A stretch of 64,000 nt of DNA from Patescibacteria group bacterium (GTDB lineage: Bacteria; Patescibacteriota; Patescibacteriia; JAXHNJ01). Of this stretch, positions 9,621 through 53,730 are shown piece after piece (the first letter of the stretch is position 1; every line of letters starts with the position of its first letter). A program made the position numbers and the translations under genes. The notes under the pieces were generated by a model, which did not search any database, was not told the DNA's origin, and saw only the letters and a program-made list of their open reading frames with translations. The stretch spans positions 13,824 to 77,823 of the forward strand of contig JBDRMK010000017.1 in NCBI GenBank assembly GCA_043812155.1. The letters run 5' to 3'.

Positions 9621-9674
9621 GGGGTATTTATTTAATGTAACTGGCCGGGATCTGAGAAAAGAAATTTCCTGAGT

Positions 9675-9709
9675 CGGGGTGTAGCGTAGTTGGTAGCGCG
9701 CATGCATGG
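9675..9709 (+). other. Orphan canonical tRNA 5' half (acceptor, D-arm and anticodon-stem 5' strand), followed by a hairpin at 9710-9738
   Basis: CGGGGTG-TA-GCGT-AGTTGGTA-GCGC-G-CATGC-ATGG has a canonical D-loop with GG. It shares GCGCATGCATGG with the downstream tRNA-Pro. No matching 3' half follows directly; instead there is the hairpin CCCGCC-TTAGTCTCTAAGACTT-CGGCGGG. Confidence 0.4.
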
Positions 9710-9769
9710 CCCGCCTTAGTCTCTAAGACTTCGGCGGGTAAAAGTGCTTTGAAAATTGACTGTTCGGGT

Positions 9770-9844
9770 CGGGGTATGGCCCAGCTAGCTTAGGGCGCAT
9801 GCATGGGGTGCATGAGATCGTGGGTGCGAATCCCACTACCCCGA
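9770..9844 (+). tRNA. tRNA-Pro (anticodon GGG), 75 nt, atypical D-loop
   Basis: Hand-folded: acceptor CGGGGTA/TACCCCG, anticodon stem CATGC/GCATG, loop ATGGGGT (anticodon GGG), T-arm GTGGG-TGCGAAT-CCCAC, discriminator A. The D-loop AGCTAGCTTA lacks the conserved GG. No encoded CCA. Confidence 0.55.
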
Positions 9845-9955
9845 CCCGAGTATTTTATTAAGAGCATGCCTGTCCGCCGAAGCTCGAATAACTATGAGAG
9901 CGTAGGCGGAAGGTCGCGAATTTACCGCCACAAAAATATAATTAATATAAACCCT

Positions 9956-31900: not shown

Positions 31901-33670
31901 TTAAGCGCGGGTGGCGTCCCAAACCTCCTCGATCGTGGTCATGCCGCGCATCGCTTTCACTATCCCGTCCTGCCGCATATAAAAGTTGCCTTGTTTGACG
32001 AACTCGGCTCTCATTTTTTCCATCACATCGCCGCCGCTCAAGATTATTTTTTTCATGCTTTCATTGATCTCCAAAACTTCAACAATGGCGATCCTTCCTT
32101 TGTACCCTGTGTTCTCGCAGCGGACGCAGCCCTTGCCCATGAACATCTTTAAAGGCTTGGTCATTTTTATGTCATCCGGCAGATTTTCTTTAGGGATGTT
32201 CTCAATCTCCTTCCAGACATCGGCCTCTAGTACAGGGGGCAGGGTGTATTCTTTTTTGCAGTTCGGGCAGATGCGCCGCACCAAGCGCTGGGCCATGATC
32301 AGGTTTAGGGAAGAGGTAAGCAAAAAAGGCTCGATCTTCATATCCGTCAAGCGCGGCACCGCGCCTAAAGAATCATTGGTATGCAAAGTGGAAAGAACGA
32401 TATGGCCGGTCAAGGCGGCGTGCACCCCGAGCTCGGCGGTCTCGCCGTCTCTGATCTCGCCGACCATGATAATATCCGGATCCTGGCGCAATATGGAGCG
32501 CAAACCGGCGGCAAAGGTCAGACCGACCTCGGGGTTAACCTGGCTTTGATTGACGCCGCTGATATAATATTCCACCGGATCTTCCAAAGTGATAATATTG
32601 ACTGACTCTTTATTAAGAATATTTAATAAAGCGTAAAGAGTGGTGGATTTGCCGGAACCGGTCGGACCGGTAATGAGAAACATGCCGTGCGATTTTTTGA
32701 TGTTCTCTTCCATCACTTTCAAGGCCTGGCCCCAGAATCCCAGCTCGTCAAGACTCGTCATCGCCGTGCTGGTATCCAAAATACGCATCACAACTTTTTC
32801 GTTGTTGATCAAAGGCAGGGTGGAAACGCGGTAATCAATATCACGATTCTCATAGGTCATTTTAAAACGGCCGTCCTGCGGCACGCGGGTTTCATCGATT
32901 TTTAAATTGGAAAGGACCTTAATTCTGGCCACGATAGAAGGATGAACATGCTTGGGCAAGACCAGAGAAGTATGGAGGATGCCGTCAATGCGGTAGCGCA
33001 CCCGCGTTTCATTGCTGACCGGCTCAATATGGACGTCCGAGGCCTTGCCTTCCACGGCGTGTCGCAGAATGACAGAAACCATCTTGGAAACCGGCGCCGC
33101 CCTCACCACTTCCTCCAGGCCTTCTTCCGCCAAAGAAACTTCCTTGAATTCAGCCGCCTCGGCTTCGGTCCCTTTCAGGGCTTCTTCCACTTCGGCGGAC
33201 AAATTCTCGTACTGCCTCAGTATATACTTTAGAGCCGAGGCGGAAGTGATAAAATATTTGATCTTAAAATGATTTTTGCGGGCGATATATTCAATCGCTT
33301 CCAAAGCCCGGAAATTCGAGGGCTCGACCATGGCCACGCTCACTTCGTCACCCGCTTTGTTAAAAGCCGCCATCCGATAATTTTTAGCCAGCTCGGCCGG
33401 AACGATATTTAAAATCTCGGCCCGGACGATGCGGCCGAAAAGATCGATATAAGGCAGATTATAAACTTTTGATTTAAGACGGGAAAAATCCTCTTCCCGG
33501 ATTATCTTGTTTTCTTCGATAATTTTTTCCGTGGTCTTGTGCTTTTTGGCCGCTTCTTCTTTTATTTCCTCGTACTGGGTGCGGCTGATCATTTTTTCCT
33601 GCAAAATAAGCTCCAGGAGTTCGTCTTCGCCGGCTCCGGCCTCAAAAGTTTGGTTGTCGTTTCTCGGCAT
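31901..33670 (-). CDS. pilB: Type IV pilus assembly ATPase PilB (GspE family), canonical motifs
   Basis: Walker A ITGPTGSGKSTTLYA, Asp box DPDIIMVGEIRD, His box GHIVLSTLHTND, tetracysteine CPNC...CVRC. Confidence 0.92.
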   Translation of the reverse strand: MPRNDNQTFEAGAGEDELLELILQEKMISRTQYEEIKEEAAKKHKTTEKIIEENKIIREEDFSRLKSKVYNLPYIDLFGRIVRAEILNIVPAELAKNYRMAAFNKAGDEVSVAMVEPSNFRALEAIEYIARKNHFKIKYFITSASALKYILRQYENLSAEVEEALKGTEAEAAEFKEVSLAEEGLEEVVRAAPVSKMVSVILRHAVEGKASDVHIEPVSNETRVRYRIDGILHTSLVLPKHVHPSIVARIKVLSNLKIDETRVPQDGRFKMTYENRDIDYRVSTLPLINNEKVVMRILDTSTAMTSLDELGFWGQALKVMEENIKKSHGMFLITGPTGSGKSTTLYALLNILNKESVNIITLEDPVEYYISGVNQSQVNPEVGLTFAAGLRSILRQDPDIIMVGEIRDGETAELGVHAALTGHIVLSTLHTNDSLGAVPRLTDMKIEPFLLTSSLNLIMAQRLVRRICPNCKKEYTLPPVLEADVWKEIENIPKENLPDDIKMTKPLKMFMGKGCVRCENTGYKGRIAIVEVLEINESMKKIILSGGDVMEKMRAEFVKQGNFYMRQDGIVKAMRGMTTIEEVWDATRA

Positions 33671-47389: not shown

Positions 47390-49894
47390 ATGGACATTCC
47401 AGTCTTAAAAAAATTCACCCAGCACCTGAAAAATACGCTTAACGCCGCGGCCAAGCTCGCTTTAGAATTGAAAAACAAGTATATCAATCCGGAGCATTTT
47501 CTTTACGGACTTTTAAGCACTCGGGGCGGCATTGCCCATGACATTTTAGGAAAAACCAAATTAAGCCCTGAATTGCTAAAAATCGCCATTCGCGCCGCTA
47601 ATGAACCGGCTCTTCATGATGATCTTGATCTCACGAAATTAAAATTTTCTCTAACGGCGAAAAAAGCCCTGGAAAAATCGGTCTTGACCGCCAACCGCTA
47701 CAAGCATAAATACGTGGGCACGGAGCATCTGCTTTTTTCCCTGTTGGAGCTTAATGACGCTTCTTTGGCAAAAATCCTGGAAGAAAGCCATATTGACCGG
47801 GAAAACCTCAAAAAAAATCTCACCGCGATCTTGAAAAATACCTCCAAGTTTCCCGATCTCTCGGGATTTTTTGCCGAAGAAAAAGAAATGGAAAAGGAAT
47901 TCGCCGGCCTTAAACCTTCCAAAACTCCGGCTCTTGATTTCTTTTCCCATGATCTGACCGACCCGGCTTTGCAAAAATCAATTGATCCCCTGGTCGGCCG
48001 AAGCCAGGAAGTGGAAAGATTGATCCATATTTTATCCCGCCGAACGAAAAATAATCCGATCCTGCTCGGGGATCCCGGCGTGGGAAAAACCGCCATTGTC
48101 GAAGGCTTAGCCAAAAAAATCCTGAAAGGCGAAGTGCCGGACGTTCTGGCCAAGAAAAAAATTCTTTCTTTGGATTTGGGAATGGTCGTGGCCGGCACCA
48201 TTTACCGCGGCGAATTTGAAAGCCGCTTAAAACAGGTGATCGAGGAAATCCGGGCCGATGAAAACATCATCCTTTTTATTGATGAGATCCATAACATCAT
48301 CGGCACCGGCTCAGCCACCGGCTCCATGGACGCCGCCAATATTTTAAAGCCGGCCCTGGCCAAAGGCCAGATCCGCTGCATCGGCGCCACCACCCTGGAA
48401 GAATTCAAAAAAAACATTGAATCCGACCCGGCCTTGGAAAGACGCTTCCAGCCCATCATTATTAAGGAATCTAACGTGGCAGAAACCCTGGAAATACTTG
48501 CGGGTGTAAAAAAGAATTTTGAAGACTATCACCACGTAAAAATAAATGAAGACGCGTTGACGGCCGCGGTCAAACTTTCTTCGCGCTATATTCAAGACAA
48601 ATTTTTGCCGGATAAGGCCATTGACCTGATTGACGAAGCCGCCGCCAAAATTAAAGTCAGCGCAAAAACAAGCCCGCTTTTAAAGAAAATCAAAGCTAAA
48701 GAAAAAGAGCGGGAAAAATTAGAAAGAGAAAAAGAACAGGCCGTTTTAAAAGAGAATTTTGACGAGGCCCTGGCTCTTAAGCAAAAAGAAGGTCAGCTTA
48801 AAATTGATTTGAACAAACTTGGGGAAAAATACGCCAAAGAAACAACCGGCTATGTCGGGGAAATAACGGAAAAAGACATCGCGGAAATAATTTCCAAGAT
48901 CACCGGCGTGCCCTTGGCCGAATTAGTGAAATCAGAAAAAGAAAGACTGGTTAACTTGGAAAAAGAACTGGGGAAATTCATTATCGGCCAAAACGAAGCG
49001 ACCAAAGCGATCGCCGATTTCATCCGCCGCTCCCGGGTCGGACTTTCCCATCCCAACCGCCCGCTTGGCTCTTTTATTTTTTTAGGGCCTTCGGGTGTGG
49101 GCAAAACAGAAATGGCTAAAGTGCTGGCTAAGGTGGTTTTTGAGGATGATAACGCTCTCATCCGCCTGGACATGTCGGAATTCACGGAAAGCTTCAATAT
49201 CTCCAAACTGATCGGCGCCCCGGCCGGCTATGTCGGCTATAAGGAAGGGACAAAATTATCCGACCAGGTAAAAAGAAAACCTTATTCCGTGGTGCTTTTT
49301 GACGAAATGGAAAAAGCCCATCCTGATGTTTTTAATCTTCTCCTGCAGATCCTGGATGAAGGCCATCTGACCGACGCCGTGGGCAAAAAGATAAATTTCA
49401 AAAACACGATCATCATCATGACCTCGAATGTCGGCCTGAAAAACCTCAATCAGCTGGCCGGCATGGGCTTTGAAACGGAAAACGAAGACACAAAAAAGAA
49501 ATGGCAGGAAAAATACGAAGCCATAAAAAATCAGGTTCTTAAAGACCTGCGCGAAAAATTTCGTCCTGAGTTTTTAAACCGGGTGGATAAAACTATCGTT
49601 TTTAAGCCTTTGGATGACGCTGCCGTGGAGAAAATAGTGGAATTGCAAATCAGAGAATTAGGCGAAAGACTGAAAGAGAAAAATATCACGTTTACGCTCA
49701 ATAGCCGGGCGCGCGCCAGCTTGGCCAAAAAGGCTTTTTCCCCTGATTCCGGGGCGCGCGCCGTCCGCAAGTTAATTCAGGAGCTGATAGAAAATCCGCT
49801 GGCGGAAAAAATACTTACCGGTGAAATCAAGGAAGGCGATCGTCTTGACATTCTTTTAGAAAAAGATAATATTAAATTAGCCAAAGCCAAATAG
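47390..49894 (+). CDS. clpC: Clp ATPase, ClpC/ClpB family (two AAA+ modules, Clp_N repeats, short middle domain)
   Basis: GDPGVGKTAIVEGLA, FIDEIHNIIG, GPSGVGKTEMAKVLA and VVLFDEMEKAH. The linker with the ENFDEALALKQKE UVR-like motif favours ClpC. Confidence 0.85.
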   Translation: MDIPVLKKFTQHLKNTLNAAAKLALELKNKYINPEHFLYGLLSTRGGIAHDILGKTKLSPELLKIAIRAANEPALHDDLDLTKLKFSLTAKKALEKSVLTANRYKHKYVGTEHLLFSLLELNDASLAKILEESHIDRENLKKNLTAILKNTSKFPDLSGFFAEEKEMEKEFAGLKPSKTPALDFFSHDLTDPALQKSIDPLVGRSQEVERLIHILSRRTKNNPILLGDPGVGKTAIVEGLAKKILKGEVPDVLAKKKILSLDLGMVVAGTIYRGEFESRLKQVIEEIRADENIILFIDEIHNIIGTGSATGSMDAANILKPALAKGQIRCIGATTLEEFKKNIESDPALERRFQPIIIKESNVAETLEILAGVKKNFEDYHHVKINEDALTAAVKLSSRYIQDKFLPDKAIDLIDEAAAKIKVSAKTSPLLKKIKAKEKEREKLEREKEQAVLKENFDEALALKQKEGQLKIDLNKLGEKYAKETTGYVGEITEKDIAEIISKITGVPLAELVKSEKERLVNLEKELGKFIIGQNEATKAIADFIRRSRVGLSHPNRPLGSFIFLGPSGVGKTEMAKVLAKVVFEDDNALIRLDMSEFTESFNISKLIGAPAGYVGYKEGTKLSDQVKRKPYSVVLFDEMEKAHPDVFNLLLQILDEGHLTDAVGKKINFKNTIIIMTSNVGLKNLNQLAGMGFETENEDTKKKWQEKYEAIKNQVLKDLREKFRPEFLNRVDKTIVFKPLDDAAVEKIVELQIRELGERLKEKNITFTLNSRARASLAKKAFSPDSGARAVRKLIQELIENPLAEKILTGEIKEGDRLDILLEKDNIKLAKAK

Positions 49895-49952
49895 CTTTTT
49901 GGTGGCCAGATAACCCTTTAGAGTCTTTTCTAAAATAAAAGACTTATTTATT

Positions 49953-50615
49953 ATGCTTATTAAATACAACCAAATAAAAAAATTCCTGCTGGATCTCATC
50001 TTTCCGGTCTTTTGTGTAGATTGCAATAAAGAGGGTGAATGGCTTTGTGTAAGATGCCTTAAAAAAATAAAGTTCAAAGAGCCATTTTTGCCTTTGAAAA
50101 ATGGCTCCGGTCTAAACGGCTTGATCATCATGGCTGATTACCAAAATGAAACGGTTAAACAAGTGATCCATCTTTTAAAATACAATTTCGCTTATGATTT
50201 AAGAACAGCCATAGGAAGCCTGCTGGCCGATTTCATTAAAAAAAGCCGCATTAATTTTCCGGCCCAAACCCTGGTTATTCCCATTCCCCTGCACAAAAAA
50301 CGTTTGCGATGGCGGGGATTCAACCAGGCCCAGATCATCGGCGAAGAGCTGGCGAAAATTTTTTCTTTTAAAGTATCCATTGACAATCTGCGCCGGATAA
50401 AATATACTCAGCCGCAAGTGGAACTTGATGCCAAGGCGCGAAAAAACAATATTATTGACGCCTTTATGCTTCATAATCCTCTTGAAATTTCCGGTCAATC
50501 TGTTATTCTTATAGATGACGTTTATACGACCGGCAGTACCATGAAAGAGGCGGCCAAAGTTCTAAAAAAAGCCGGGACGAAAGAAGTAATCGGATTCGTG
50601 ATTGCGAAAGGTTAA
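49953..50615 (+). CDS. comF: ComF family protein (phosphoribosyltransferase domain, competence)
   Basis: N-terminal CVDC...CVRC zinc finger; C-terminal VILIDDVYTTGSTMKEA, a PRTase motif. Confidence 0.75.
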   Translation: MLIKYNQIKKFLLDLIFPVFCVDCNKEGEWLCVRCLKKIKFKEPFLPLKNGSGLNGLIIMADYQNETVKQVIHLLKYNFAYDLRTAIGSLLADFIKKSRINFPAQTLVIPIPLHKKRLRWRGFNQAQIIGEELAKIFSFKVSIDNLRRIKYTQPQVELDAKARKNNIIDAFMLHNPLEISGQSVILIDDVYTTGSTMKEAAKVLKKAGTKEVIGFVIAKG

Positions 50616-50651
50616 AAATTATTAATAAACGTAGGGAATCCTATAAAACGT

Positions 50652-50745
50652 GGAGAGGTGGCCGAGTGGCTGAAGGCGGCAGGTTGCTAACCTGTTATGC
50701 GGGTTTAAATCCGTATCGCGAGTTCGAATCTCGCCCTCTCCGCCA
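50652..50745 (+). tRNA. tRNA-Ser (anticodon GCT), with encoded CCA
   Basis: Acceptor GGAGAGG/CCTCTCC, anticodon arm GCAGG-TTGCTAA-CCTGT, long variable arm, T-arm GCGAGTTCGAATCTCGC. Confidence 0.85.
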
Positions 50746-50801
50746 ACCTACGCTCCTTTGGAGCTTCGGTTGGCAGGCCTAGGTATATTTATTGGAAAAT
50801 A

Positions 50802-51062
50802 ATGTGGTATGTATATATTTTAAAAAGTAGAAAGTTGAATAATTGGATATATGTGGGTTCAACTAATAAATTGTCCCGAAGAATTAAAGAACATCAAGAG
50901 AGTAAGTGTCTATCGACTAAACCCTATATGCCAATTTATGTAGTTGCTTATATCGCTGTCATTTCTGTAAAAGTAGCTCGATCACTGGAAAAATACTTGA
51001 AAACTGGCTCAGGAAAAGCGATTTTAAAGAAAAGAATTTTAAGCGACGAAACTTTAGTGTAG
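50802..51062 (+). CDS. GIY-YIG nuclease domain protein (mini mobile element cargo)
   Basis: WYVYILKS...YVGSTNKLSRRIKEH, a GIY-YIG motif. Confidence 0.7.
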   Translation: MWYVYILKSRKLNNWIYVGSTNKLSRRIKEHQESKCLSTKPYMPIYVVAYIAVISVKVARSLEKYLKTGSGKAILKKRILSDETLV

Positions 51063-51066
51063 TCGC

Positions 51067-51080
51067 TCTCGCCCTCTCCG
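51067..51080 (+). repeat. 14-nt direct repeat of the tRNA-Ser(GCT) 3' end (TCTCGCCCTCTCCG); a second copy lies at 50729-50742
   Basis: Exact match read from the sequence; the two copies bracket the GIY-YIG ORF. Confidence 0.7.
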
Positions 51081-51116
51081 TTTAAAAAATAAATATTCTT
51101 ATTACTTCCGCGTCAG

Positions 51117-51215
51117 AACGGAGGGGTGCCAGAGCGGTTGAATCCCGTCATTCGGCGGGACAAGTGGGACGGTCTTGCCACCCCGCCGTAGGGGGGTCAC
51201 GCCCGAGGCGGGAAA
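51117..51215 (+). other. GC-rich tRNA-like remnant or unidentified structured RNA
   Basis: The 5' end GGAGGGGTGCCAGAGCGGTTGAA resembles the tRNA-Ser 5' end GGAGAGGTGGCCGAGTGGCTGAA. Long-range pairing GGGGTG...CACCCC. No complete cloverleaf can be drawn. Confidence 0.3.
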
Positions 51216-51236
51216 AACCTTACATAAAATATATCT

Positions 51237-51326
51237 GGTGGGATGGCTGAGTGGCTGAAGGCGCTGGTCTTGAAAACCAGAGTCGCTGCAAGGCGACCGC
51301 AGGTTCAAATCCTGCTCCCACCGCCA
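51237..51326 (+). tRNA. tRNA-Ser (anticodon TGA), with encoded CCA
   Basis: Acceptor GGTGGGA/TCCCACC, anticodon arm CTGGT-CTTGAAA-ACCAG, long variable arm GTCGCTGCAAGGCGAC, T-arm GCAGGTTCAAATCCTGC. Confidence 0.85.
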
Positions 51327-51362
51327 TCAATATTAAATAATATAAATAAGAGGAATAAATTT

Positions 51363-51863
51363 ATGCCCGAAGAACAAAAAAAAGAAATAGACCACGGCGA
51401 AACGCTCGCGACTTGGACTTTCCCGGAATTTACCGCCCACCAAAGGGGCAAGGTTTGGTATGTTTCCATAATCATCATTTGCGCCGCGGCTCTGATCTGG
51501 TCGCTTTTTACCGCCAATTATCTTTTTTCTCTTATTATCATCATTATCGGCTTTATATTGGTCCTGCAAAACCGCCAAAAAGCCAGTCTTCTTTCCTGTC
51601 AGATCAAAGAAGACGGCCTGGAAGTCGGGCGCAACTTCTATAATTTTAAGGATATAAAAAAATTCTATATCATCTACCAGCCGCCGGAAGTAAAAACTCT
51701 TTATTTTGATTTTAAAAACACGCTTCGCCCGACCCTGCCTCTCCCCTTACAAGACCAAAATCCTTTGAAAGTCCGCGAAATCCTGAAAAAATATCTGGAA
51801 GAAGACCTGGAAAAAGAGGAAGAGCCGGCTTCCGACGCTATTACCCGCTCGCTGAAGATATAG
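51363..51863 (+). CDS. Hypothetical membrane protein
   Basis: Start chosen at MPEEQKKEIDHGE; the listed ORF start overlaps tRNA-Ser. Two TM helices. Confidence 0.45.
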   Translation: MPEEQKKEIDHGETLATWTFPEFTAHQRGKVWYVSIIIICAAALIWSLFTANYLFSLIIIIIGFILVLQNRQKASLLSCQIKEDGLEVGRNFYNFKDIKKFYIIYQPPEVKTLYFDFKNTLRPTLPLPLQDQNPLKVREILKKYLEEDLEKEEEPASDAITRSLKI

Positions 51864-51965
51864 GTTGAACTGTTGAAATTGTTAAAAATGTTAAAGATGT
51901 TGATTTGCTTGTGATATTATTTTAAAATAACTTCAACAATTTTAACAATTCAACAACTTTCTGCC
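51864..51965. repeat. Imperfect inverted repeat built from GTTGAA/TTCAAC-type units
   Basis: GTTGAACTGTTGAAATTGTTAAAAATGTTAAAGATGTTGA ... AACTTCAACAATTTTAACAATTCAACAAC. A related tract lies at 30361-30400. Confidence 0.4.
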
Positions 51966-51974
51966 ACCACCCCT

Positions 51975-52046
51975 GCCCTCGTCGTTCAACGGATAGGACG
52001 CAGGATTGCGGATCCTGCAATAGAGGTTCGATTCCCCTCGAGGGCA
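51975..52046 (+). tRNA. tRNA-Arg with unusual anticodon GCG (one A-C mismatch in the T-stem)
   Basis: Acceptor GCCCTCG/CGAGGGC, D-arm GTTC-AACGGATA-GGAC, anticodon arm CAGGA-TTGCGGA-TCCTG, T-arm AGAGG-TTCGATT-CCCCT, discriminator A. Confidence 0.55.
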
Positions 52047-52211
52047 TAGGCGGCGGCGGATAAATATGAGATGCCGTTATTACCCTTGACGGTATTATTA
52101 AGTTATTTGACAAAAATAGCTATCTTTGGTTAAATACTTTCATCGATAATTGTTACGGCTTTCCGAAAAAAGCCGAAAGTTCGTTTCACTTGCTGGACTT
52201 AGGAGGTTGAC

Positions 52212-53477
52212 ATGACAAGAAGTCCAGTCATCGAAAGATTCCTGTCTTTGGTCGGTTTCGACACCCAATCGGTGGAAACCGCTCCTGGTCAGGAAGCTCG
52301 ACATCCGTCAAGCCCAGGCCAAGAGGTTCTGGCGACACACATCAAGGAGCAGATCGCCTCTTTCCCGGGTTTCCAACCGGAAATGCTTACCATTTTCGCC
52401 GACGGATCATTCGTTGTCCAGATACCGGCTTCCCAGGGCTTTGAAGGGAAACCGCACGTCGCCTTCGCGGCCCACCTCGACACGTACTACAACTTCTCCG
52501 GCGCAACCAAGCCGATCATCCGCGTGAACTACTCCGGAGGAGACATCACGCTTCCCAACGGCGGAACGGTCATCACGGCGGAAGATCTAAAAGGCCTGGA
52601 AGGCAAGACTATCATCACGAGCGACGGAGGAAGCGTGCTCGGTTCGGATGACAAGGCTGGGGTCGCCGCCATCATCGAAGTCCTCAAGCAGATCCTTGAA
52701 GGCAATGGCGGTTCGCATGGGCCGCTCACTTTCTGGTTCTGCGTGGACGAGGAGATCGGGCAACTGGACATCTCTGTCCTGCCCGAGGATCTCGTGAAAT
52801 CCTGGGCCATCCTCTGGACGGTCGACGGATCGGAAGTCGGTAAGATCGACATCGGCTGCTTCGTCTGCCGGAAGATCTTCGCCACCTTCAAGGGCGTCGA
52901 CAGCCATCCCGGCGAGTACGGAAAGAAACTCAAACCCGCTCACTACGCGGCGATCTGGCTGGCGGCGGCTATCGGCACAGACGGCCAGTACCTCACCCCA
53001 ATGGAAACCAGCGGTCTCGAATCGTTCCACTATGTCACCTCCATCGAGGGAAACGCTTCCAAGGCCACGGTCATCCTCGTCCCCAGGACTTTCGATAAGG
53101 ATGAGTCCGAAGAGATGGCCAAGGAAATCCGCGAGCTGGCCGAGCGGGCCGCCACGGAATACGGGGTCGAATTCACCTTCGAGGACAAGCTGATGTGCGG
53201 CAACACGGTGGAGGGGATCGAGGCGAACCGTCCGCTCGTTCAGGTCGGCGTCAACGCGCACGAAGGCCAGGGATTCGAGGTCATCGAGCACCAGTGCCGT
53301 GGCGGCACGGATGGCGCCATGATCAACATGAAGTATCCGGATCTGCCCGCTCCCAACATGGGTCACGGCGGCCGCCTTTTCCACGGTCCCAGCGAGTTCC
53401 TCGTCGTCGAGGAGCTGGAAGCGGTTCCGAACATTATCATGGACATGATCGCAGAATACGCCGTGTTTGCCGAGTAA
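52212..53477 (+). CDS. M20-family metallopeptidase, peptidase T-like (GC-rich, probably horizontally acquired)
   Basis: AHLDTY (HxD) and GSDDKAGVAAI (M20 GxDDKxG motif). GC is about 58% with strong GC3 bias, unlike the flanking genes. SD AGGAGG. Terminator CTGGGAGAA-acctt-TTCTCCCAG-TTTTTTT at about 53510-53540. Confidence 0.6.
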   Translation: MTRSPVIERFLSLVGFDTQSVETAPGQEARHPSSPGQEVLATHIKEQIASFPGFQPEMLTIFADGSFVVQIPASQGFEGKPHVAFAAHLDTYYNFSGATKPIIRVNYSGGDITLPNGGTVITAEDLKGLEGKTIITSDGGSVLGSDDKAGVAAIIEVLKQILEGNGGSHGPLTFWFCVDEEIGQLDISVLPEDLVKSWAILWTVDGSEVGKIDIGCFVCRKIFATFKGVDSHPGEYGKKLKPAHYAAIWLAAAIGTDGQYLTPMETSGLESFHYVTSIEGNASKATVILVPRTFDKDESEEMAKEIRELAERAATEYGVEFTFEDKLMCGNTVEGIEANRPLVQVGVNAHEGQGFEVIEHQCRGGTDGAMINMKYPDLPAPNMGHGGRLFHGPSEFLVVEELEAVPNIIMDMIAEYAVFAE

Positions 53478-53730
53478 ACAAACAACGGCAAGTTAGGAGG
53501 AATCAAACACACTGGGAGAAACCTTTTCTCCCAGTTTTTTTATTTATTAATATTTGATATAATATAAAAGTACCTTTTTCTTCTTAAGATTATCCGGAAA
53601 GGGGTGTCCAAGAAAGAAATAGAAGGGGGGTGATAAGCGCACCACTGTTAGTGACAGGATAATCTTTAAGAAGAAACCAGTCGTGTAAATTTGGCTTTTC
53701 CACAGGGGAAACACGGAGGTAGTACTTTAT

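Follow-up and report, generated by a model that had tools for sequence, protein, structure and literature searches.

The Ssn enzymes, about 94 aa long, have a single GIY-YIG domain. Their genes lie between inverted hairpin repeats (NTS/SRM), and the enzymes cut only single-stranded DNA (ssDNA), at a point that lies a few nt upstream from the oriented hairpin (Chenal et al. 2025, PMC11893778). The hairpin and the protein co-vary, the authors noted a layout similar to that of an insertion sequence (IS), and SsnA/NTS of Neisseria has been proposed to restrict or shape the recombination of incoming ssDNA; tRNA is not mentioned in that paper (PMC11893778). Here we describe an element of 324 bp that encodes a GIY-YIG nuclease and lies directly behind a tRNA-Ser(GCT) gene in a stretch of 64,000 nt (64 kb; hereafter the window) from a Patescibacteria group bacterium (assembly GCA_043812155.1, contig JBDRMK010000017.1, positions 13,824 to 77,823). 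By analogy, Ssn/NTS seems to be the closest known system and the best functional analogue, as both combine a single-domain GIY-YIG protein of about 90 aa with a gene placed between inverted, oriented hairpins. Unlike the NTS, the hairpins described here are not amplified genome-wide, as far as the window goes, and the element is tied to nt 60/61 of tRNA-Ser with a target-derived duplication. The SRM pattern HGTCWYN(0-2)YYVSBRHN(0-5)WNVSBRGN(0-2)RNCYNB, run as a regular expression on both strands, has no match in the window and none in the 68 related elements considered below.

Several other systems share parts of this organisation. Seg endonucleases (SegB of the T4 tRNA cluster) and I-TevI have a GIY-YIG core, reside in or next to tRNA genes, show presence/absence polymorphism and probably spread through the break made by the nuclease. 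They differ in having added DNA-binding domains and at least 200 aa, while the 86-aa protein of the window is Slx1/UPF0213-like with no separate DNA-binding domain recognised by Pfam, and they have neither flanking direct repeats nor hairpin ends; the likeness to Seg drawn in the initial annotation of this locus is only a loose one. Integrase-borne islands, such as NBU2 at a Bacteroides tRNA-Ser gene, use a target reaching from the T loop to the tRNA 3' end, regenerate the tRNA and leave a direct repeat of its 3' end, but they are kilobases long and rely on a tyrosine recombinase and an att core, whereas the element here has 324 bp and no recombinase. RAYT/REP (REPIN) and IS200/IS605 systems also place a small nuclease gene between inverted hairpins, form gene-less doublets and recognise DNA hairpins (putatively so here), but their HUH Y1 transposases produce no target duplication and have no tRNA target. 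The Dada elements are eukaryotic DNA transposons that insert site-specifically in tRNA and small-RNA genes as a safe harbour (PMC8869645). They share site-specific insertion inside tRNA genes with our element and differ in their eukaryotic hosts, DDE transposase and expendable multicopy targets, as the element here preserves the tRNA by duplication. In the searchable full-text literature we came across no account of a prokaryotic GIY-YIG element with a link to tRNA-Ser; combinations of GIY-YIG with tRNA gene, hairpin, transposon or Candidate Phyla Radiation (CPR) returned fungal mitochondrial and phage homing papers and the Ssn paper only. The large and conserved family of mini-elements associated with tRNA-Ser was thus found to be undescribed in that literature.

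We consider it likely that positions 50743-51066 of the window hold an intact copy of a widespread family of mini mobile elements which target tRNA-Ser genes and duplicate part of the target on insertion. The members of this family are associated with the site between nt 60 and 61 of the tRNA, are accompanied by a duplicated tRNA 3' segment, have inverted hairpin ends, and are gained, lost and switched between tRNA genes.

Organisation of the Element

The element and its surroundings comprise the following features.

50652..50745, + strand: intact tRNA-Ser(GCT), the target gene (ARAGORN; Rfam RF00005, 59.3 bits over 50652-50742)
50729..50742, + strand: left direct repeat TCTCGCCCTCTCCG (sequence reading, pattern search, repeat search)
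50743..51066, + strand: element proper, 324 bp, between the direct repeats (sequence, pattern search, family architecture)
50742..50779, + strand: left hairpin (LH) with conserved AGGCC tail (inverted repeat, 87% complementary)
50802..51062, + strand: GIY-YIG nuclease gene, 86 aa, single domain (Pfam PF01541, 3.7e-11)
51042..51067, + strand: right hairpin (RH), AGCGAC-GAAAC-TTTA-GTGTA-GTCGCT (sequence reading)
51067..51080, + strand: right direct repeat, displaced copy of tRNA nt 60-73 (sequence reading, pattern search)

The order is direct repeat, inverted end, gene reaching into the other inverted end, and direct repeat, with the tRNA, LH, open reading frame (ORF), RH and downstream copy on one strand and close together. 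The left repeat is made up of T60, the 3' strands of the T and acceptor stems and the discriminator G73; nt 61-73 and the encoded CCA of tRNA-Ser(GCT) correspond to 50730-50745. The right repeat starts 5 nt past the stop codon, directly after RH, which is the modal position in the family, and is followed by TTT versus CCA in the tRNA. A pattern search found TCTCGCCCTCTCCG exactly twice in the 64 kb, at these two places, and a single further site with two mismatches at 32440 (0.37 sites are expected by chance at up to two mismatches). The initial annotation had described a GIY-YIG ORF bracketed by an exact 14-nt repeat whose first copy is the 3' end of a tRNA-Ser; all of this holds, as the two copies form a unique pair in the window, PF01541 identifies the ORF, and both ARAGORN and Rfam place the left copy at the end of the tRNA. 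ARAGORN called four tRNAs in the window, tRNA-Ser(GCT) and tRNA-Ser(TGA) among them, and Rfam agrees.

LH lies directly 3' of tRNA-Ser(GCT), and its stem opens with G73 and CCA of the tRNA. The stem-loop (50742-50774) reads GCCAACC-TACGC-TCC-TTT-GGA-GCTTC-GGTTGGC and is followed by AGGCC. RH holds the last six codons of the nuclease gene (S-D-E-T-L-V) and its stop codon TAG (51060-51062), and represents the LH motif on the opposite strand, in the manner of terminal inverted repeats. The common motif has three parts: an outer stem of 6-7 bp that varies, the conserved GACGAAGY...RCGTAGTC box, in which G.A and A.G are mismatched, and an inner stem-loop, which again is variable. Like an insertion sequence, the element thus has terminal inverted repeats (LH/RH) and a flanking target duplication, here of 13-17 nt with a variable right edge. 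The GIY-YIG gene is the only ORF with a family match between the repeats: no transposase of a known class (DDE, HUH, Ser, Tyr) is present in the element, and no tyrosine or serine recombinase gene was found in or beside it among the ORFs of the window. The Rfam search over 49800-52400 gave no group I/II intron signature and, at E<=1, no match to the hairpins or to the GC-rich tract described below.

Properties of the Nuclease

The protein consists of one PF01541 domain (residues 1-71 of 86 aa) with no further Pfam domain. The catalytic residues Y5, Y17, R27, H31 and E63 are invariant across the family alignment, and the window protein has all family-invariant residues (Y5, Y17, G19, R27, H31, E63 and the GSGK..KKRIL tail). 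The C-terminus, YLKTGSGKAILKKRILxDEA, is unusually well conserved in the alignment; the outer stem and box of RH (NNNGAC-GAAGC) code for its xDEA end, whose conservation follows from this location inside RH. The AF2 model (pLDDT 86) shows one compact domain and a C-terminal helix. Foldseek on the model returned the Slx1 nuclease domain (TM 0.6-0.7, query-normalised), UPF0213 BH0048 and HIGLE as the nearest solved folds, and a sequence profile search of the PDB gave UPF0213 BH0048 (1zg2, 3.7e-8) as the best solved relative and matched Slx1 too, with no Ssn entry among the matches. The NCBIfam model grpIintron_endo scored 23.7 bits (cut-off 56). The modelled fold is accordingly predicted to be a GIY-YIG of Slx1/UPF0213 type, and UPF0213 (YhbQ/BH0048) and Slx1 are closest to the window protein by both sequence profile and fold. 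The distinctive C-terminal helix, with its end inside RH, sets the family described here apart from UPF0213 and Slx1. To our knowledge, no link to tRNA-Ser has been described for either of them.

Conservation of the Arrangement in the Family

Close homologues of about 85 aa number in the hundreds and occur in Patescibacteria, Ignavibacteriota, Bacteroidota and other phyla. The survey covered 185,579 species genomes (one genome per species) and yielded 542 confirmed relatives, the best 80 of which were retrieved as loci; the architecture counts refer to 77 gene copies with full flanks from many phyla. An exhaustive profile search gave 2256 clusters (50% identity) at E<=1e-10. No family relative was found on plasmids or in IMG/VR, and phages gave one weak partial match.

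A tRNA on the same strand ends at most 500 nt upstream in 68 of the 77 copies, at a distance of 47-459 nt (median 98) between nt 73 and the ATG. This tRNA is tRNA-Ser in 66/68 cases, the remaining two being one tRNA-Lys and one tRNA-Gln. All four anticodon groups are represented (GCT 24, GGA 17, TGA 13, CGA 12; n = 66). When the 13-mer of nt 61-73 of the local tRNA was sought within 110 nt after the stop codon, it was present without mismatch in 39 of the 68 loci, with one mismatch in 12 and with two in 6. At one mismatch or less the local 13-mer is therefore found in 51/68, versus 0/665 for non-local 13-mers, so that GIY-YIG copies with tRNA-derived repeats are by no means confined to the window. 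The downstream copy begins at exactly +5 nt relative to the stop codon in 30/57 loci, and RCGTAGTYNNN always precedes it; the junction is therefore fixed at 60/61, the T-loop/T-stem boundary. Since the tRNA segment (61-73, often 61-76 or further) is present on both sides of the element, the upstream tRNA is whole and the nuclease gene sits directly behind it.

LH was recognised in 46 and RH in 52 of the 57 loci. Their outer stems vary in a compensatory manner (AGCGAC/GTCGCT, ACAGAC/GTCTGT, ACCGAC/GTCGGT, CAAAAC/GTTTTG). The T.C and C.T mismatches of the LH box are kept in 39/42 sequences, and those of the RH box in 37/47 (G.A) and 32/47 (A.G). LH and RH are hence different RNA motifs but the same DNA motif, and we read the hairpin ends as putative DNA recognition sites. 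The family's conserved, native size is about 320-400 bp, with no gene besides that of the nuclease. The initial annotation had regarded the element as a reduced island, a view that does not agree with this size, with the element's own inverted hairpin ends and with the lack of an integrase.

Presence, Absence and Movement among Relatives

The neighbouring ComF gene served as a synteny anchor. Relatives without the GIY-YIG gene exist, the closest by ComF being L087/L088 (72% ComF identity) and L089/L090 (75%). In L087, tRNA-Ser(GCT) is followed by 5 nt and then by a homologue of the GC-rich tract. In L089, a tRNA identical to that of the window is followed by a 68-nt insert, TCGCCCTCTCCGCCA and a solo LH. 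Three loci at 56-63% ComF identity (L091, L092, L094) have RH-like relics and then an old tRNA 3' end. The intact element is found at the same ComF-tRNA-Ser(GCT) site in L093 (51% ComF identity) and in L004/L008/L009 (39-42%). The identity of ComF does not track that of the nuclease, which is 79% for L001, 76% for L007, where the gene sits behind tRNA-Ser(TGA), and 67% for the syntenic L004. At the ComF-tRNA-Ser(GCT) site the downstream copy tracks the T stem of the local tRNA (CTCGC in the window and L004, CCCGC in L009, CTCTC in L093), hence the repeat is made from, or kept identical to, the target and is not carried unchanged by the element.

Occupancy was assessed on metagenomic tRNA-Ser genes with the exact 3' 29-mer of the window tRNA, 97 of which were evaluable. 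Neither LH nor a GIY-YIG gene lies within 900 nt of 86 of them, one has a solo LH, and at ten there are GIY-YIG relatives of a more distant kind. Of the 86 sites without LH and ORF, seven carry a gene-less insert of 70-170 nt and then a second CTCGCCCTCTCCG. Closely related nucleases are found behind different isoacceptors: those of L033 (CGA) and L040 (GCT) are 88% identical, and those of L017 (GGA) and L069 (TGA) 82%. L015 has tandem full copies, L013 and L074 a second partial copy, and L079, L018, L036 and L082 contain arrays of gene-less LH+RH units; an RH-repeat-LH junction is visible in L004 and others. The element is thus polymorphic for presence and absence at a fixed genomic site, and the insertion at a tRNA 3' end with duplication of the target, put forward in the initial annotation, is strongly supported by the local-tRNA repeats, the gene-less relatives and the unoccupied alleles.

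Gene-less inserts of 70-170 nt at tRNA-Ser 3' ends, followed by a second nt 61-73, were observed in L096, L123, L129, L139, L143, L151 and L213, and likewise in L089, L091, L092 and L094. A stretch resembling GAGAWTCTCGAAG / GAGATTCGAA is present in many of them, with a GC-rich hairpin as the last feature. They resemble derivatives, either decayed or non-autonomous, that share the site of the element. Tandem whole nuclease elements behind one tRNA-Ser, each unit ending in a copy of the tRNA 3' segment, occur in L015 and in the metagenomic L191. The L191 nuclease, at 38% identity, is a member of a more distantly related subfamily of GIY-YIG proteins, and the target thus appears to be common to several subfamilies.

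Proposed Mechanism

In the model that we infer, the nuclease gene is probably transcribed from the tRNA promoter, and the nuclease would recognise the tRNA-Ser gene and/or the hairpin ends, the latter most likely in extruded or single-stranded form, as Ssn nucleases recognise NTS hairpins. The enzyme would make a site-specific break at 60/61, into which host repair would copy or join the element. On the 3' side, either another break of lower precision or a repair tract of varying length would leave a target-derived duplication with a fixed left and a variable right edge. If the enzyme acted on the + strand as Ssn does, a break some 12 nt 5' of LH would coincide exactly with 60/61. Tandem arrays would arise if the tRNA, once regenerated, received further insertions. 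The predicted junctions are ...GTTCGAATCTCGCCCTCTCCG directly followed by TTTAAAAAATAAAT for the empty site and ...GTGTAGTCGCTCTCGCCCTCTCCGCCAACCTACGC... for a circle or tandem.

The right edge of the duplication lies at nt 73, at nt 76 or well into LH, which argues against a fixed staggered cut. It fits one precise and one imprecise break, variable repair tracts, or repeated insertion.

Several points weigh against the mobile-element reading. The mechanism is inferred, and neither transposition nor cleavage has been observed. We know of no GIY-YIG enzyme that acts as a transposase. Once regenerated, the tRNA can be targeted anew, and simple homing explains neither immunity nor the direct repeats. 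With a right edge at nt 73, at nt 76 or up to tens of nt into LH, the duplication is not a classic target-site duplication of fixed length. The high identity of the downstream copies could reflect selection or gene conversion as opposed to recent insertion, and the occurrence of the element at the same ComF-tRNA-Ser(GCT) site in distant relatives could reflect long vertical residence with repeated loss. Searches of plasmids and viral contigs gave no relatives, and therefore no vector for horizontal spread is known. Finally, the exact predicted empty-site junction GTTCGAATCTCGCCCTCTCCGTTTAA had no match in the metagenomes, and a precise empty site from the window's own lineage was not found. 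The sequence TTTAAAAAAC after the L092 tRNA, considered as an empty-site flank, was dropped because of its low complexity and the relic insertion that L092 itself carries.

Alternative Explanations

The main alternative, to which we assign a low probability, is that the locus is a domesticated host module and not an active mobile element. The nuclease and hairpins would then serve the cell, for instance by restricting or shaping the recombination of incoming ssDNA, with the gene riding on the tRNA-Ser promoter and the downstream copy retained because it functions, for example, as a signal for RNA 3'-end processing or as a substrate of recombination. The Ssn case speaks for domestication, and the intact, strongly conserved gene, its persistence at the same ComF-tRNA-Ser(GCT) site in lineages at 39-51% ComF identity, the exactness of the downstream copy in 39/68 loci, the usual single copy per locus with only about four hairpins in the window, and the failure to find plasmid or virus carriers all agree with it. 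Set against these are the closest relatives, which lack the gene and carry decayed relics, the same tRNA allele left unoccupied in 86/97 cases, the near-identical genes behind different isoacceptors, and the existence of tandem and ORF-less copies. Even a domesticated module would need a history of insertion.

The constant start of the copy at nt 61, its complementarity to the local 5' strands, and the close spacing of all parts on one strand could also point to an arrangement that works at the RNA level. A tRNA-LH-ORF-RH-copy transcript would allow the copy to pair with the 5' acceptor and T-stem strands of the tRNA, so that the element would be a T-loop insertion or intron, or a switch between two tRNA 3' ends. 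This seems very improbable: the upstream tRNA is complete by itself, neither splicing machinery nor a group I/II intron signature is present, and the downstream copies are decayed by at least two mismatches in some loci. Moreover, the RNA motifs of LH and RH differ (U.C/C.U versus G.A/A.G) and their DNA motif is the same, which points to DNA recognition.

More improbable still is the remnant of a classical integrase island at a tRNA 3' end, stripped down to its cargo nuclease. Direct repeats of a tRNA 3' end are generally known as a hallmark of such islands, but there is no recombinase gene in or beside the element in the window, and the minimal layout of about 330 bp, with its own hairpin ends and an ORF that reaches into the right end, recurs in about 60 independent loci across phyla, which is not expected from independent decay. 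A chance match as the source of the 14-nt repeat, for which nothing beyond the shortness of the repeat speaks, is already refuted by the presence of only two exact copies of TCTCGCCCTCTCCG in 64 kb and by the 0/665 non-local versus 51/68 local 13-mers.

The GC-Rich Tract and a Possible Mirror-Image Family

Downstream of the right repeat lie a GC-rich tract and a second tRNA-Ser gene.

51106..51219, + strand: GC-rich tract, displaced 5' part of tRNA-Ser(TGA) (alignment with the L087, L091, L092 and L094 tracts and with the intact L087 tRNA)
51106-51119: conserved tRNA 5' flank TTCCGCGTCAGAAC
51120-51143: tRNA-Ser(TGA) nt 1-24
51144-51165: 22-nt hairpin insert CCCGTCATTCGGCGGGACAAGT, in the D loop
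51166-51177: GGGACGGTCTTG, the 3' strand of the D stem, the 5' strand of the anticodon stem and the first four loop bases
51178-51219: two small hairpins and AAAAACC
51237..51326, + strand: intact tRNA-Ser(TGA), of a sequence type unlike the upstream relic (ARAGORN, Rfam)

The GC content of the tract is 0.59-0.63 versus about 0.35 nearby, and its tRNA-like part starts with GGAGGGGTGCCAGAGCGGTTGAA, at 51120 and not at 51117. The 38 nt formed by TTCCGCGTCAGAAC and tRNA nt 1-24 are identical (38/38), as is GGGACGGTCTTG, to the intact tRNA-Ser(TGA) of L087 with its 5' flank. No complete cloverleaf was recognised in the tract (no ARAGORN call and no Rfam match at E<=1), and Rfam lends no support to its identification as SRP, 6S or tmRNA. 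The + strand folds at -54.6 kcal/mol (z -2.3 versus shuffles), and the - strand no better than shuffles. The tract recurs, position of the insert included, in L087, L091, L092 (twice) and L094, therefore it is old and conserved and not a fresh wreck. By these alignments the tract is the 5' flank and nt 1 to about 35 of a tRNA-Ser(TGA) whose type is still intact in L087. The initial annotation was right to see in it a real, tRNA-derived tract that forms no cloverleaf, but a recently wrecked local tRNA is at odds with its conservation in at least four related lineages.

The 22-nt hairpin CCCGTCATTCGRCGGGACAAGT occurs once in the window (51144-51165), in L087 (4225-4246) and twice in L092 (3528-3549 and 3656-3677), and is reversed in L089 (1604-1625), where it lies inside the 68-nt insert at the tRNA-Ser(GCT) 3' end. 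Because of this opposite orientation it may itself be a small mobile module. The sequence CGTCATTC, common to NTS and this insert, is treated as a coincidence. Part of the right repeat, CCTCTCCGTT (51073-51082), is 90% complementary to the start of the tract, AACGGAGGGG (51117-51126), 34 nt apart. This probably reflects the acceptor stem common to Ser tRNAs, although pairing in a transcript is possible. A circularly permuted or split tRNA was rejected, as the two pieces are relics of different Ser tRNAs and Ser acceptor stems are alike.

Partial copies of a tRNA-Ser 5' part upstream of the complete tRNA were seen in ten of the retrieved loci. Five of these, with a spacing of 335-460 nt, have a UPF0213-like GIY-YIG gene between the partial copy and the tRNA.

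L010, 1050-1316: UPF0213-like gene upstream of tRNA-Ser
L020, 1081-1347: UPF0213-like gene upstream of tRNA-Ser
L048, 1070-1324: UPF0213-like gene upstream of tRNA-Ser
L058, 1089-1349: UPF0213-like gene upstream of tRNA-Ser
L059, 148-396: UPF0213-like gene upstream of tRNA-Ser

These genes are flanked by direct repeats of the tRNA 5' part that end in the D loop or the anticodon loop, and the displaced 5' parts sometimes include 7-37 nt of the 5' flank. In L010 the last seven codons and the stop codon of the ORF are the first 21 nt of the tRNA, and the relic of L059 ends in ...GTCTTG, exactly as the window tract does. By analogy with these loci, the tract has the look of a left repeat displaced in a mirror-image event, after which the gene was lost.

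Elsewhere in the window, tRNA-Pro(GGG) (9769-9847) has a truncated tRNA-Pro 5' copy upstream (9674-9709), which ends in the anticodon loop and has a D arm more canonical than that of the complete gene. The tRNA-Pro(GGG) gene lies between two inverted LH-type hairpins, CCCGCC-TTAGT...ACTTC-GGCGGG at 9710-9738 (+) and TCCGCC-TACGC...GCTTC-GGCGGA at 9873-9910 (-), and CAGGC at 9868-9872 forms the tail of the latter. Downstream of the gene we saw no second tRNA-Pro 3' end.

Other Observations in the Window

An AT-rich imperfect palindrome (GTTGAACTGTTGAAATTGTTAAAAATG ... CTTCAACAATTTTAACAATTCAACAAC) occupies 51865-51965, between a DUF5673-like gene and tRNA-Arg(GCG). It caused an Rfam match to SCARNA7 that is spurious, as is the match to Plastid-psbI-rps4, which falls on the antisense strand of a tRNA. 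The GC content rises to about 0.6 in an ORF of 421 aa (52212-53477; region 52200-53500) versus 0.35-0.45 in the preceding genes, possibly owing to horizontally acquired DNA or to an assembly join after the tRNA cluster.

Conclusions

If positions 50743-51066 are indeed a copy of a mobile element that targets tRNA-Ser, the family would provide evidence of insertion (a defined target, a fixed junction, target-derived repeats, empty sites, and tandem and gene-less copies) for hairpin-flanked single-domain GIY-YIG genes, which the 2025 description of Ssn only suspected of being IS-like. In addition to introns and inteins, there would be a third route by which a nuclease gene can occupy an essential gene with no harm to it, namely the duplication of part of the target. 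At about 85 aa, the nuclease would be a compact enzyme with a predictable DNA target (the hairpin and/or the T arm of tRNA-Ser), of interest for ssDNA and site-specific tools. The family would also explain the recurrent 'broken tRNA' fragments and the odd repeats flanking tRNAs in CPR, Bacteroidota and Ignavibacteriota, which is relevant for annotation.

More tentatively, and with somewhat less than even confidence, we suggest that the family is a previously unrecognised class of prokaryotic transposable elements. Its sole protein would be a single-domain GIY-YIG nuclease that recognises hairpin-forming inverted ends, the T loop of tRNA-Ser would serve as its safe harbour, the tRNA would be healed by duplication of the target, and the UPF0213-like sister family would mirror this arrangement on the 5' side of tRNA-Ser, at the D or anticodon loop. 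At 324 bp, the element would then be among the smallest autonomous mobile elements known, and such elements would have given rise, by domestication or amplification, to the Ssn/NTS pairs.

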